Shown here: positions 5,285-23,646 of the stretch, one piece after another
Position numbering within the stretch: position 1 is the stretch's first letter
Layout of the letters: each line of letters begins with the position of its first letter
DNA from: Eledone cirrhosa
Lineage: Eukaryota
NCBI GenBank assembly: GCA_964016885.1
Contig: OZ024759.1
Location: 22,754,001-22,818,000 of the forward strand
Direction: 5' to 3'
DNA length: 64,000 nt
Translations under genes and position numbers: made by a program
Notes under the pieces: generated by a model
The model's input: the letters and a program-made list of their open reading frames with translations, nothing else
Databases searched by the model: none
Told to the model about the DNA's origin: nothing

Positions 5285-5366
5285 AGGTCCGTCGAGCTGC
5301 GGATTATCGGGTAAGATCGATATAGATCGAACCCTGAGCTGATCAGTGGCGAAACGCGCGTCACCT
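5285..5366 (+). ncRNA. Hammerhead-like ribozyme, variant core CCGUCGA, long stem II
   Basis: aggt-CCGTCGA-[gctgc...55-nt hairpin...gtggc]-GAAAC GCGC GTC-acct. Stem I aggt/acct, AATAAA at 5370, then a tail with CATCGAGTGCTC ending in (TA)n at 5520. Confidence 0.65.
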
Positions 5367-6019
5367 ATCAATAAATGCAATGAAGGAATAATCAATCGTC
5401 CTTTTTATCCTTTCTATATATTACACTCTGTATAGCTCCACACCTCATCACAGAAGTGAACCTAAACATCGAGTGCTCACCCGGGTGAACCTGCAGTAAC
5501 TCCTAGTTACACCCCCTGAATATATATATATATATATATATACACACATACACACACACAAACACAGTGCTACTAAAAGTCTTCGTAAACTATTTTATCA
5601 ATTGCATTATGTTGCTATTACTAACACTCTTCACATCATCTCAATCCTTGGGAAGTGTCTGTTGGAGGGAGATAGAAAGAGCGCAATTGTATATTAGAGA
5701 ATGTTTGTAAATAAAATCAAGTCTCTAATGAGATTTGTCCAGCGCTCCACCGATTTTACCATATAAATAATATAATAGGCTGTCAATTTTCCAAGGTTTA
5801 TTACTTAAATTAGTGAGTTTGATCATATCTGCTGGGGATTTGGTGTCTGAAAATGTTTTTATTGAGTTATTATTTCATTCGATTTCGTTGATATGTAGTA
5901 TATGAGATAGTATACATATATATATACACATATACACAGTGTATAGCATATGAGAGTATAGTGCACACGACATATATAGTAGAGCACATATATACAGTAG
6001 TATATATGTGATAGTATGT

Positions 6020-7662
6020 CTACACATATGAGTCACTCATATAGTGTGTGTATATAGCACATATATACATACATATATATATATACACACATAGATACAT
6101 ACAGTATATATATATACACACATATATACATACATATATATATATACACACATATATACATACATATATATATACACACATATATATACTCATATATATA
6201 TATACACACATATATATATATACATATATATATACACACACTCATAGATATATATACAGTAATATAGTGTGCTCATATATATAGTATATATAGTACATAT
6301 ATATATATATACACACACGACACAAGTAGTGATATAGTATTAAATATATACACACGATGAGTAGTGTATGTAGAGTATATATATATATTTATACACACAC
6401 ACCACATATATATATATAGTATATACAGTATAGATATACACACACACACATGAGTAGTGAGTAGTATAGTGAGAGTATATATACTCACACACACATATAT
6501 ATATATATATATACATATATATATACACACACACACATATATATATATATATATATACATATATATATACACACACACACATATATATATATATATATAT
6601 ACATATATATATACACACACACACATATATATATATATATATATACATATATATATACACACACACACATATATATATATATATATATATATACATATAT
6701 ATATACACACACACACATATATATATATATATATATATATACATATATATATACACACACACATATATATATATATATATATATATATATACATATATAT
6801 ATACACACACACACATATATATATATATATATATATACATATATATATACACACACACACATATATATATATATATATATATACATATATATATACACAC
6901 ACACACATATATATATATATATATATATATACATATATATATACACACACACACATATATATATATATATATACATATATATATACACACACACACATAT
7001 ATATATATATATATATACATATATATATACACACACACACATATATATATATATATATATACATATATATATACACACACACACATATATATATATATAT
7101 ATATACATATATATATACACACACACACATATATATATATATATATATATATATATATATATATACATATATATATATATATATACACATATATATATAT
7201 ACATATATATATATATATATACATATACATATATATATACATATATATATATATACATATACATATATATATACATATATATATATATACATATACATAT
7301 ACATATATATATATACATATACATATATATATACATATATATACATATACATATATATATATATACATATACATATATATATACATATACATATATATAT
7401 ACATATACATATATATATACATATACATATATATATACATCTACATATATATATACATCTACATATATACATATATATATCTACATATATATATATCTAC
7501 ATATATATATATACACATATATATATATACATATATACACATATATACATATATATATATATACATATATATATATACATATATACACATATACATATAT
7601 ATATATATACATATATATATATACATATATATATATACATATATACACATATACATATATAG
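6020..7662. repeat. Compound (TA)n/(CA)n microsatellite
   Basis: Seen directly; source of the YI/HT-type spurious ORFs. Confidence 0.97.
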
Positions 7663-7744
7663 TTTATACTGTAACAGTTCACTATTTTCATTGGTAAGAA
7701 AAGTTAAGCTCAAGCTACATTGTTACTCTTCGTACTACACACAC

Positions 7745-7917
7745 TGTGTGTGTGTGTGTGTGTGTGTGTGTGTGTGTGTGTGTGTGTGTGTGTGTGTGTG
7801 TGTGTGTGTGTGTGTGTGTGTGTGTGTGTGTGTGTGTGTGTGTGTGTGTGTGTGTGTGTGTGTGTGTGTGTGTGTGTGTGTGTGTGTGAGAGAGAGAGAG
7901 AGAGAGAGAGAGAGAGA
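7745..7917. repeat. (TG)n followed by (AG)n microsatellite
   Basis: Seen directly. Confidence 0.97.
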
Positions 7918-8042
7918 TACGTTTCGCCTGCTTTTTGAACAAAAGTTCATGCATACAGACACAAACGTGTGTGTGTGTATATATATATATATATATATAT
8001 ATATATATATACATGCTCAAACATATATATATACTTTAGTTA

Positions 8043-20600: not shown

Positions 20601-20639
20601 GCAGTTAATTTATACGTGGCCTGATAAGCTTTCTACCAA

Positions 20640-21025
20640 AGAGTGTATTCTTATCGTAATTCTCAGGGAGATTCAGTGGGTATGCTTATCGTAGTTCTCA
20701 GAGAGATTCATTGTGTATCCTTATCGTAGTCCTCAGGGAGACTCAGCATGTATTCTTAACGTAATACTCAGGGAGATTCAGTGTATATCTTAACGTAATT
20801 CTCAGGGAGATTCAGCCCTTTAAATTACAAGTACAACTGCTCATATTTTTTGCCAACCGAATAGATTCGAGCAAGGTATATTGAAGAAACTTGCTCAAGG
20901 ACACAACGTGCCGCCCGGCCTAAGAATTGAACTCACGACTTTACCATCGTGAGCCGAACACCCTAACCACAAAGACACACGCCTATACAAGCTGTGCACA
21001 GATACGTGTACCCTTAATGTAATGC
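20640..21025 (-). mobile_element. SINE family B (minus) with a ~39-bp internal segment amplified ~5x
   Basis: CTTATCGTAATTCTCAGGGAGATTCAG repeated over 20640-20815 is the reverse complement of the SINE B internal CTGAATCTCCCTGAGAACTACG. CTTGCTCAAGGACACAAC core at 20890. Confidence 0.7.
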
Positions 21026-22606
21026 TAAGTGTGCGTGAGAGAGAGAGAGAGAGAGAGAGAGAGAGAGAGAGAGAGAGAGAGAAGAGAGAGAGAGAGAGAG
21101 AGAGAGAGGGGGTGAGAGAGAGAGAACGATAAAGAGAGAGCGAGACAGAGAGGGGGAGTTAGACAGAGAGAGAGTTAGACAGAGAGAGAGAGAGAGAGAG
21201 AGAGAGAGAGAGAGAGAGAGAGAGAGAGAGAGAAAGAGAGAGAGTTAACACACCGTGTGACTAGACCGAGCCTTTTGAATCAGAGGTAAAACGAATTTTT
21301 CCGAGCAGAGTGGATTGGAGCAACGTGAAATAAAGTGTCTTGCTCAAAACAAAATGGCTGATGGAAAATATGTGAGAAAAGCGGTAAGACTCACATATGT
21401 ATTAATTTTCTAAAGGTGATTAACAGATCGGAGCAAGGAAACGATGATTCCATTGGTGACAACTCTCGGAAAGCATCACCGCTCTTCTGTTGACAGGAGA
21501 TGGGTTTTGAGATCACACACACACACATATATATATATAAAATGAAGAAAAGCCAAGGTTAACTTAAAACCATTCTTTAATTTCTACGTATGTTTCTATA
21601 CAAGTGATAATGTTACATTACACACACACACACAATCGCACTAAAAGTTCGTAAGTCTATTAAATATTTTAATAATTCTTCCCTAAACTTTATAGAGAGA
21701 GAGAGAGAGAGAGAGAGAGAGAGAGAGAGAGAGAGAGAGAGAGAGAGAGAGAGGCAGAAACAGAGAGAGAAAGAAGGAGAGAGTCGGAACAAATACCACA
21801 AGACATGTGGTATTTGTTTATTTATCTGATGCTCTATCGATTCTGACAATTCACTGCCTTGAAACGATACTATTACCAACAGGCAACAGGAAAGAAGTAA
21901 ACTCATTGTGAATACGGAAATAATAATGTCCGACATTTTGCGTCGCCATGATTGATTATGAACATGAACAGACTTAAGTTGAGCTGTTGGTCGGAGATGT
22001 TATCTCAGCCACCTGGTGAAATAATACTATTAGGCGTCACATGTTGCTTTTCATCCTAAGTAAGCAAAAGTTTACCAACGCCAACAACCCGGATTCTATG
22101 TGGAAGACAGACTATGTAATTGTTCTGAAGTGTGACGAGTTTAGTGCAGTTAATTACGGGCCTTACTATTCGGCTCTTCCGATTCATTTCGTCGTAGGTC
22201 TTATGACAATTATATACGGTTTTGAAAGCCAAATACGTTCTTTAGTCACACACACACATATATAAATATATATGCATTTGCATATATACGGTATATATAT
22301 ATATTTATATATACTTCTGTATATATATATATATATATATATATATATATATATATATATATATATATATACATATATTGATTAAAATAACAGATTAAAG
22401 TTTAAGCAAAGAATCGCTGCTTTCACCATTAACGGGATCTTCTGAAACTAACAAAGTCAATCTGTGAACGCGGAAGTGAATATTTCAAAAAACGTTGCAA
22501 CCGGAGGAAGACAGGAAGACGATACTTTGGTTCGTGGAAACGTTCCCTGGTTATATATGCATATATATATATATATATATATATATATATATATATATAT
22601 TAAAAC

Positions 22607-22853
22607 ATAGAATAGCTTTCACCGTATTTTTGACTAAAGAAATTTTAGTCTGATAATGGGGTTTAGAACCCTCAGATAAATGGAAAAAGATGAGTATTGA
22701 CGTACATGTACGTCAATACTCATCTTTTTCTATTTATCTGAGGGTTCTAAACCCCATTATCAGACTAAAATTTCTTTAGTCAAAAATACGGTGAAAGCTA
22801 TTCTATTTTCTAATTTCAAACCTGCTCACTGTTTCAAAACATATTTACTTGTC
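22607..22853 (+). mobile_element. Near-perfect 200-bp palindrome plus ~47-nt tail inside (TA)n
   Basis: Arms 22607-22706 / 22707-22806, no loop (centre GTACA|TGTAC), 1 mismatch. Confidence 0.8.
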
Positions 22854-23365
22854 ATATATATATATATATATATATATATATATATATATATATATATATA
22901 TATATATATATATACTTCTGTATATGTATATATACCAGTTATTTTGATAAGCTAAGGGGAAAATTGGTGGTTGTGGTAGACAAATCATGATGTAAGAAAT
23001 CAATCAAAGTACTCAACGTTATGCAAGTCATCTATCGTAGATGTGATGGATGTCCAGTGGATGGAGCAGGAACGGAGTAAAGTATTTATAAAATGATAGC
23101 AGAAGGCCGGACTGAAAGATATGCTTTAAAATGTTTATTGCATGAAATGACTATACATATTCCCATGGCCCACCTCCGCCATCCAAATACGATGCAAGAC
23201 AGGATGATCTCATCAGGTAAATTTGACAGAATTACACACCAGGGTTACATTGAACACAAACTTATCATGGAAGATAGGGAAAAGAGAATAGGAAATTGAA
23301 AAATGAAAGTTCCACTCGTAGACTGCCTGCAAAAATACTATTGTGTTAATATATATATATATATA

Positions 23366-23646
23366 ATATAATATAAAACGAAAAATCAGTGATGCATCTG
23401 AACTCAATTTATTGTGTGTTACAATTGTTTCGCCGGCGGACAGCTCGAGACACGATCATTGAGTGGATCTGTCTGATTCTGGATCCGCAGGTTCGACGGA
23501 CACGTCTAATGATTTCGGAACCAATAAATTGAGTTCAGATGCATCACTGATTTTTCGTTTTATATTATATCATACTCTGCTCTGTAAGAGCATAGAGTGC
23601 TCAACCGGCATACCGCCTATGGAAGCATCTTAGCTACCATCAGATA
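23366..23646 (+). mobile_element. Hairpin-plus-tail element containing a complete minus-strand hammerhead
   Basis: 49-bp arms 23366-23414 / 23522-23570, then a tail with CATAGAGTGCTC. Microsatellite on both sides. Confidence 0.75.
23416..23503 (-). ncRNA. Hammerhead-like ribozyme, variant core CCGUCGA, long stem II
   Basis: Minus strand: gtgt-CCGTCGA-[acctgcgga...tccgccggc]-GAAAC AATT GTA-acac, followed by AATAAA. Confidence 0.65.

Follow-up and report, generated by a model that had tools for sequence, protein, structure and literature searches.

The window analysed here is a stretch of 64,000 nucleotides of the Eledone cirrhosa genome that carries four relatives of one hammerhead superfamily, two of them with the 5' core CCGUCGA. 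The features are as follows:

5264..5521 (ends approximate), plus strand: 5'-truncated stub of a Hydra-clade Penelope-like element (PLE) of family A, in (TA)n
5285..5366, plus strand: family A hammerhead, type I fold (copy 1)
5285-5288 / 5363-5366, plus strand: copy 1 stem I, aggt/acct
5289..5295, plus strand: copy 1 core CCGUCGA (U4C + A6U), identical to the family consensus
5296-5350, plus strand: copy 1 stem II, 55 nt
5351-5355, plus strand: copy 1 GAAAC, followed by loop GCGC and by GTC at 5360-5362 (GUC site)
5370..5375, plus strand: AATAAA just 3' of copy 1 stem I
15743..15833, minus strand: third relative, same superfamily, 5' core lost at the inversion
23368..23519 (ends approximate), minus strand: 5'-truncated stub of a Hydra-clade PLE of family B
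23416..23503, minus strand: family B hammerhead, type I fold (copy 2)
23503-23500 / 23419-23416, minus strand: copy 2 stem I, gtgt/acac
23493..23499, minus strand: copy 2 core CCGUCGA (U4C + A6U), identical to the family consensus
23492-23432, minus strand: copy 2 stem II, 61 nt
23431-23420, minus strand: copy 2 GAAAC-AATT-GTA (AAUU loop in stem III, GUA site)
23413-23408, minus strand: copy 2 AATAAA
23522..23645, plus strand: inverted partner of the family B stub, AATAAA through tail
24712..24803, plus strand: fourth relative, same superfamily, U4C-only core CCGAAGA

Copies 1 and 2 have, at 5285-5366 and 23416-23503, the type I layout with a CCGUCGA core that a first, sequence-only reading had assigned to them, and both belong to PLE families, in whose pseudo-LTRs (pLTRs) that reading had placed them. 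They share an apical GATC..GATC; stem II of copy 1 lacks 5 nt, a deletion private to that copy, and position 10.1-11.1 is G-C in family A and A.C in family B. The family A stub corresponds to the 3' UTR end, or pLTR, plus a tail of ~100 nt that runs into the start of the open reading frame (ORF) in loci L182 and L123. The inverted layout beside the family B stub is known for PLE insertions (PMC8557442, Fig. 2 legend; here and below, comparisons with PMC8557442, PMC4209133, PMC3088659, PMC7151607, PMC11167929 and PMC9901934 refer to the parts of those papers drawn on for this analysis). The third relative does lack its 5' core, as had been noted, but its closest relatives (L246, L257, L264 and L272) read CTGAGGA or CTGATGA, so it belongs to a canonical-core family. 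The fourth, absent from the sequence-only reading, has stem I cat/atg, an AAUU loop and a GUA site. Flanks of the window copies, and of most loci, are (TA)n. No PLE protein remnant was found in the 64-kb window; the repeat search was dominated by TA/CATA arrays, and the 150 matches listed of 630 from an Rfam scan of the whole window were microsatellite noise.

Families A and B are two autonomous Hydra-clade PLE families with hammerheads in their pLTRs. The order in family A is pLTR hammerhead, tail, an ORF with RT plus a C-terminal GIY-YIG, a long 3' UTR and a second pLTR hammerhead. L182, a complete partial tandem, reads CCGTCGA in each pLTR and has ~4.9 kb between the hammerheads (longer than the <3 kb Hydra elements of PMC8557442), a 3' UTR of 2.2 kb and an ATG ~200 nt beyond the cleavage site. 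Its ORF contains RWR, ADKT (DKT), CNCKKRDEC (CxCX5C), CRLC (CxxC) and CRH (CxH), like the Hydra clade of Craig et al. 2021, whose hallmarks are a C-terminal GIY-YIG, a CxCX5C linker, CxxC, CxH, and RWK-like and DKT motifs (PMC8557442, section 11). Similarly, the RT region resembles by eye the Hydra-2_Amil and Hydra-1_Ajap rows of Fig. S1 in that paper, and (TA)n targets, the tail and inverted copies are shared with the clade. The Pfam GIY-YIG match is weak (E=0.005), and a PDB search with the RT piece returned only a retron RT (E=0.08). A Neptune/Nematis assignment was dropped, as CxCX5C and DKT are present rather than a CX2-5CxxC linker and DKG. At the family B loci L179 and L180, endonuclease remnants lie 1.7-2.9 kb upstream; no full-length family B copy was seen among the loci examined.

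Relative to the hammerhead consensus C3-U4-G5-A6-N7-G8-A9, both families have C4 and U6 and keep C3, G5, G8 and A9; G12-A13-A14, A15.1-U16.1 and the NUH triplet are present (GAAAC..GUC in A, GAAAC..GUA in B). The altered core is a fixed family trait and not decay of single copies, in agreement with the sequence-only reading. Among 30 family A and 30 family B copies found without using the core in the search, CCGUCGA is present in 24 and 18, respectively, and CUGANGA in one of the 60, so that the refuting case named in the sequence-only reading, a CUGANGA consensus, does not hold. Sister families of A and B have a canonical core. In a sample of 70 copies blind to both core halves, GAAA is kept in 60, and the G12A change occurs in three, all from one canonical-core family. 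Every family-level deviation of the core that was observed lies in the uridine turn, namely U4C, A6U and, in one family, a one-base insertion (CUGAAAGA/CUGAAGGA). As had been foreseen, standard searches miss the motif; Rfam Hammerhead_1 aligns to the 3' half of copy 1 only, at 13.8 bits, below the gathering cut-off of 34.

Across the 3.0-Gb genome, the shared 3' half GAGCT-N10-GAAAC-N4-GTH gives 18,231 matches versus 52 for the reversed pattern, and CCGTNGA placed before it gives 2,267 versus 0, so the motif is not due to chance. With the long-stem-II superfamily pattern, these CCGUNGA matches stand beside 4,586 CUGANGA, 2,278 CCGANGA and 277 CUGUNGA matches, many of the last being out of register or CpG-decayed A or B copies.

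The three-helix junction of stems I-III is backed by covariation. Among 43 representatives, 85.5% of cells are paired versus 76.1% when shuffled and 29-36% when slid, and both-side changes number 117 versus 48 in shuffles, whereas pairs with change (14 versus 14.0) are not above shuffles; these figures are inflated by relatedness, the structure was hand-drawn and the pairs of stem III had served as search anchors. By itself, RNAalifold finds no more than 6 pairs in stem II. Loop III is self-pairing at both positions in 37 of the 43 (GCGC, AATT and ATAT types). Within stem II, a GAGUC/GAGCU element is more conserved than the flanking stems, GAGCT having been the search anchor for the set. A kink-turn reading of this element, judged by eye, was abandoned, the tandem GA being absent from family B, and a covarying switch in which the core pairs with stem II UCRG was rejected, as B-lineage C4 families keep A there (by eye, alignment A1).

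The sequence-only reading saw in the two copies a single inherited variant class, which is not supported here: one CCGU clade is rejected on the RNA and protein trees alike (p-AU 1e-78 and 3e-61, respectively), with A and B each grouped among their own CUGANGA and CCGANGA relatives. Because both trees reject one origin, A6U was likely gained two times, in each case where U4C was already present, and each family would have reached CCGUCGA separately, from CUGA through CCGA to CCGU. From the same A-to-U transversion in both lineages, and from the two CpGs kept inside CCGTCGA in the masters, we infer a narrow tolerated path for core change.

A shared 7-mer may also reflect selection of a non-catalytic kind, either for a DNA-level role in the pLTR (a promoter or factor site, CpG content) or for a hairpin that hides the core, or else a short conversion tract that moved the 7-mer between families; we consider this highly improbable. 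U6 makes a UCGA palindrome and, in predicted folds, new core pairings in both families, and promoters are known in PLE pLTRs (PMC6765202). However, neither A and B nor the A subfamilies have their predicted pairings in common, so that no shared switch emerges, and a conversion tract is made less likely by flanks that differ on either side of the core. In the same predictions, the core is unpaired at 0.20 with U6 versus 0.40 with an in-silico CCGA core in family A (0.31 versus 0.65 in B), and stem I forms at 0.08 versus 0.54 (0.04 versus 0.15 in B). The folds thus predict less of the hammerhead-ready state with U6 than with CCGA.

Has catalysis been lost altogether? In this scenario, U4C would have weakened the ribozyme and A6U ended catalysis, A and B spreading without self-cleavage while the hairpins would owe their retention to protein binding, to RNA end formation or to the promoter, and the core has not yet drifted; we hold this to be possible, though on the unlikely side. 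In ten subfamily consensuses from the A and B lineages, none of the 13 remaining core and junction positions varies, versus 32 of 118 other positions in A and 17 of 119 in B (joint P ~0.002). Constraint after A6U alone is not significant (P=0.14); the test is biased toward conservation, since core-containing patterns had served to gather many of the copies, and its group A1 includes U4 copies. The post-A6U value and the predicted core mispairing are compatible with loss of catalysis. Moreover, CUGA-region double mutants are low in activity, with no positive epistasis except for C3G/G8C, in a comprehensive survey of pairwise mutants of a type III hammerhead (PMC9901934), cleavage is dispensable for Anolis PLE insertion in vitro (PMC11167929), and Naiad PLEs proliferate without canonical hammerheads (PMC8557442). 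CCGU copies also appear youngest, with a nearest-neighbour distance of 0.033 versus 0.057 for CCGA and 0.077 for CUGA in a position-ordered sample, a ranking confounded by the denser sampling of two families. Loss of catalysis nevertheless leaves unexplained why A6U, rather than a change at another core site, became fixed in both lineages; in addition, the CCGU state lasted through four A subfamilies, in which 15 of 118 other positions changed, and occurs in a second genome without the youngest A subfamily.

The opposite outcome, closest to the variant ribozyme class of the sequence-only reading, would be a near-normal ribozyme with a new core, through mutual rescue of U4C and A6U, through GAGUC/GAGCU in stem II or through another metal ion. 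Fixation of A6U is confined to a C4 background (the 2,267 CCGU versus 277 CUGU matches) and is seen in two lineages, the stem II element is conserved as described, and the natural A6C variant switches ion preference to Mn2+ (PMC7151607), all of which would suit such compensation. Against it, U4C is frequent and stable in the absence of A6U, and the independent events are two only. Because the published mutagenesis found no rescue among CUGA double mutants (PMC9901934), a compensated, fully active class appears unlikely, and we give this view little credence; that CCGUCGA is an efficient ribozyme is doubtful.

We favour, at a probability of about one half, the reading that the two PLE families separately fixed CCGUCGA cores that are weakened, slow ribozymes retaining G8, G12 and the dimer palindrome. 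Within a tandem transcript, the stem III palindrome would let two motifs pair, probably with help from the element's protein, and cleave slowly after GUC or GUA. Catalytic G8 and G12 are kept, while the structural uridine-turn positions 4, 6 and 7 have drifted along the narrow path. With slow cutting, the RNA available as template would be largely uncut, and such cutting would be no bar to A and B being among the most recent amplifiers. In favour of this reading are the 13 invariant core and junction positions, the GAAA retained in 60 of 70 core-blind copies, the restriction of core deviations to the uridine turn, the shared A-to-U transversion, the self-pairing stem III loops, the L182 tandem and the U4C majority in a second hammerhead family. 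Natural precedents point the same way: U4C lowers activity in vitro and still supports viroid infectivity (PMC3088659), A6C is slow in Mg2+ and not dead (PMC7151607), and the Anolis PLE hammerhead cleaves only with its own protein (PMC11167929). Against a slow ribozyme we count the P=0.14 from a biased sample, the low activity of CUGA double mutants, the predicted mispairing of the core with U6, the dispensable cleavage in the Anolis PLE, the six stem II pairs of RNAalifold alone and the three G12A copies of 70. It is also conceivable, if rather unlikely, that CCGUCGA represents another functional hammerhead core, at which two lineages arrived through an identical pair of steps and whose activity depends on the element's protein, on GAGUC/GAGCU or on a different metal ion. 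In that case, CUGANGA descriptors would overlook about half of the superfamily's intact hammerheads, and the CUGA, CCGA, CCGU and insertion subfamilies would form a natural allelic series for cleavage tuning.

These hammerheads resemble the metazoan PLE type I hammerheads of Cervera and De la Pena 2014 (PMC4209133) in their pLTR location, short stem I, inverted neighbours, palindromic loop III that allows dimer folding, weak or additional base where stem II begins and low expected activity. They differ in the CCGUCGA core, the core variant there being U3-A8, and in a stem II of 55-61 nt with GAGUC/GAGCU versus 6-8 bp. The Hydra rows of File S2 in PMC8557442, found with a canonical descriptor, all have a CUGA core and short stem II (26/26). 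The viroid U4C, the A6C of phage Bcep176 and the A6a insertion affect the same uridine-turn positions and retain reduced, measurable cleavage (Perreault et al. 2011, PMC3088659; PMC7151607). In contrast to those rare examples of single changes, two changes are fixed here in ~2,000 copies, with U, not the C of Bcep176, at position 6. The Poseidon PLE of Anolis carolinensis, PAc, likewise has a pLTR hammerhead in an autonomous PLE and is the model for protein-assisted, dispensable cleavage; unlike here, the core tested there is C3-G8, without a U4/A6 variant, and the PAc ORF starts inside stem II rather than past the cleavage site (PMC11167929). A CCGUCGA hammerhead was not found in the literature searched, in which coverage of key hammerhead papers and supplements was incomplete.

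Hammerhead cleavage may or may not be needed for PLE transposition: it is weak in vitro and assisted by protein, and one reconstituted system can dispense with it. The present genome contains sister autonomous families that differ stepwise at core positions thought fixed, and the most altered form, present in two lineages, is among the most recently amplified. The two altered families are thus a natural test of whether PLEs need RNA cutting at all. Their abundance also indicates the number of hammerheads that escape CUGANGA-based searches. If they cleave, the hammerhead consensus widens and context- or protein-dependent rescue is shown; if they are inactive, canonical-lineage PLEs spread after loss of catalysis, with the fold kept for another job.

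In a second hammerhead family, one whose stem II is short, most copies likewise carry U4C (91 among the first 100 of 1,212 matches). A putative third family with A6U, in which stem II is short, was set aside, since its 111 matches versus 58 in the control are scattered and show no family. Small CCGTTGA and CCGTAGA groups occur among the short-stem-II matches, and the examined loci of the same subfamilies are mostly A6.

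Inspection of the DNA bears out the sequence-only reading that the window holds two CCGUCGA hammerhead-like motifs (U4C + A6U relative to the canonical CUGANGA), both as described. Searching the window with a covariance model of 43 relatives, constructed for this analysis, recovers four members of the superfamily:

5285-5366, plus strand: CCGUCGA motif of family A
23416-23503, minus strand: CCGUCGA motif of family B
elsewhere in the window: third relative, 5'-truncated
24712-24803: copy with U4C only

The window copies are 5'-truncated stubs inside (TA)n, one of them accompanied by an inverted partner, and about 200 N at 24377-24576 adjoin the U4C stub. 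Directly upstream of family A stem I lies TTTTCTTATAG (5264-5274, plus strand), which resembles a 3' splice site and near which many truncated family A copies begin; in Drosophila Penelope, the intron has its end at helix I (PMC4209133).

As that reading had proposed, the double substitution is a family-wide trait rather than decay of single copies. Repeat searches used queries lacking the core, so that the core was not selected for, and the recovered loci were counted by eye, each 30-locus set including the window's own copy. In family A, 24/30 loci read CCGTCGA, five are single-change variants retaining U6, one is truncated and none has CUGANGA; in family B, 18/30 read CCGTCGA, with six decayed versions, three CCGACGA, one CTGACGA and two truncated. 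Upstream, three of these loci (the CTGACGA one and two with CCGACGA) are flanked as in the A6 sister subfamily. A first look had given about 2,260 candidates for each motif. Across the 3.0-Gb genome, the shared 3' half of the long-stem-II scaffold (GAGCT-N10-GAAAC-N4-GTH) has 18,231 pattern matches versus 52 for the control; with a core specified, the whole-genome matches number 4,586 for CTGANGA, 2,278 for CCGANGA, 2,267 for CCGTNGA (the first 100 comprising 92 CCGTCGA and four out of register) and 277 for CTGTNGA, many of the last being A/B copies with CpG decay or matches out of register. In a second genome (three runs, one sample), no alternative core letter exceeded 10% in family A or 5% in family B among contigs at least 80-85% alike, a selection that favours the same core. 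The youngest A subfamily's flank letters are almost wholly absent from these contigs; the core is therefore older than that subfamily.

The carrier is a Hydra-clade Penelope-like element (PLE). Locus L182 is a complete partial tandem, in which a pseudo-LTR with a CCGTCGA hammerhead is followed by a tail, an ATG, a reverse transcriptase (RT), a GIY-YIG domain, a 2.2-kb 3' UTR and a CCGTCGA hammerhead, its ORF being broken by frameshifts and stops. The element's protein carries RWR, DKT, CxCX5C, CxxC and CxH, which are Hydra hallmarks according to Craig et al. (PMC8557442), and its RT region is similar to the Hydra rows in Fig. S1 of that source. Unlike A and B, however, 26/26 Hydra rows in File S2 of the same paper have a CUGA core and a short stem II. 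Remnants of an endonuclease precede family B copies, and none of the copies examined was full-length. Argonauta hians is the source of three of the seven nearest protein relatives looked up, which makes an octopod host probable. Two ORFs, assigned by eye, belong to neighbouring unrelated retroelements: 459 aa at L130 (minus; another PLE, RT + GIY-YIG) and 622 aa at L127 (plus; non-LTR-type RT).

The sequence-only reading had taken the shared core to mark one inherited variant class, a view that the trees do not support. In an RNA tree built on 105 hammerhead regions (drawn from 223, no more than six per cluster; positions 4, 6 and 7 masked), the deepest split separates A from B, CUGA and CCGA relatives adjoin each, and a single CCGU clade (22 rows constrained together) is rejected with p-AU 1e-78. 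A protein tree of 17 rows likewise rejects it (p-AU 3e-61), with several rows short, weak hit L277 omitted and four distant ORFs that may come from adjacent insertions. Protein identity between A and B is 33-55% over shared columns; between B and three of its CCGA neighbours it is 61-76%. At least 12 changes at position 4 and four at position 6 are needed on the RNA tree, some of them copy-level. We infer two separate gains of A6U, one per lineage, although a short conversion tract between the families may be the source of the shared core. Within lineage B, CCGA subfamilies are nested within CCGU rows, so reversal is possible; the greater divergence of CCGA copies from their consensus (4.3-5.7% versus 1.4-2.3% for CCGU sets, which include best-hit copies) favours gain of U6.

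Across 43 representatives, 85.5% of cells pair, versus 76.1% in shuffles and 29-36% in slid controls, and both-side changes number 117 versus 48, measures inflated by kinship; the count of pairs showing both-side change does not exceed shuffles. Pair 7-93 of stem I is intact throughout this set (24 A-U, 18 G-C and one G-U), and stem III loops self-pair at both positions in 37/43. N17 is A, C or U. Without guidance, RNAalifold recovers only six stem II pairs. Every lineage has a GAGUC (or GAAUC)/GAGCU element in stem II, roughly 10 bp away from the junction, GAGCT preceding GAAA by exactly 10 nt, and the GAGUC/GAGCU-only pattern has 10,364 matches versus 40; it is a candidate protein-binding or tertiary-contact site. 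One example lies at window 23441-23474 (minus); in alignment A1 the element takes up columns 31-35 and 65-69.

In ten A and B subfamily consensuses, 0/13 other core or junction positions vary, versus 32/118 (A) and 17/119 (B) outside (joint P about 0.002; U6 subfamilies alone, P=0.14), in copies whose collection by core-containing patterns biases the test. Among 70 copies retrieved with stem II as the only query, GAAA is retained in 60 and G12A occurs in three, all of one canonical family. In two related sister groups of B, the uridine turn carries one inserted base, after A6, giving an eight-base core (CUGAAAGA or CUGAAGGA) like the A6a variant of Perreault 2011 (PMC3088659):

G000:C1:758300-760500: B-sister locus L348
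G000:C1:18755000-18755400: B-sister locus L349
G000:C1:19547600-19552300: B-sister locus L350

Among the first 100 of 1,212 matches to a separate short-stem family, 91 have C4 and none has U6. Given these constraint data, GAAA retention, insertions and C4 family, the uridine turn is the core part that these elements vary. The short-stem family has a window member at 42340-42386 (minus; core CCGAAGA), differs in N7 and stem II by subfamily, and has Hydra-like protein remnants near two loci.

Published variants point to reduced activity: U4C lowers it yet supported a viroid, A6C and A6a are slow (PMC3088659), A6C prefers Mn2+ (PMC7151607), and among CUGA-region double mutants none but C3G/G8C was rescued (PMC9901934). 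In folding predictions, U6 diverts the core to other pairings in A and B alike, via different hairpins. The Anolis PLE hammerhead works only with the element's protein, and insertion in vitro can proceed without the hammerhead (PMC11167929). Our reading, at roughly even odds, is a weakened, still constrained hammerhead: in tandem transcripts two hammerheads would form a dimer, the element's protein would assist it, and the CCGUCGA dimer would retain slow residual cleavage. We prefer this to a dead scaffold, which seems rather unlikely, mainly because the same transversion is fixed in both lineages, with no other core site, and two mutable CpGs are kept; doubt about the weakened hammerhead comes mainly from how recent A6U is and from the mutagenesis results (PMC9901934), both of which speak for the dead scaffold.

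The incompletely covered literature on U4C/A6U, literal cores, and cephalopod or Neptune/Penelope hammerheads yielded no CCGUCGA hammerhead; what is new here is the joint fixation of U4C + A6U in two autonomous Hydra-element lineages. In another repeat, CCGTCGAAAC occurs at window 16492-16528 (an inverted pair, 16492/16522) and 38938-38944, with no type I hammerhead layout at these sites. Back-to-back hammerheads of another family lie at 53198-53278 (minus) and 53332-53404 (plus), the latter combining the canonical core CUGAUGA with loop AUGU and an AUC site. The core of a further family (L024, L035, L059, L067) is the canonical CUGAGGA; its stem II is very short and its site is GUU, in the layout acgag CTGAGGA ... 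GAAAC AATT GTT ctcggt.
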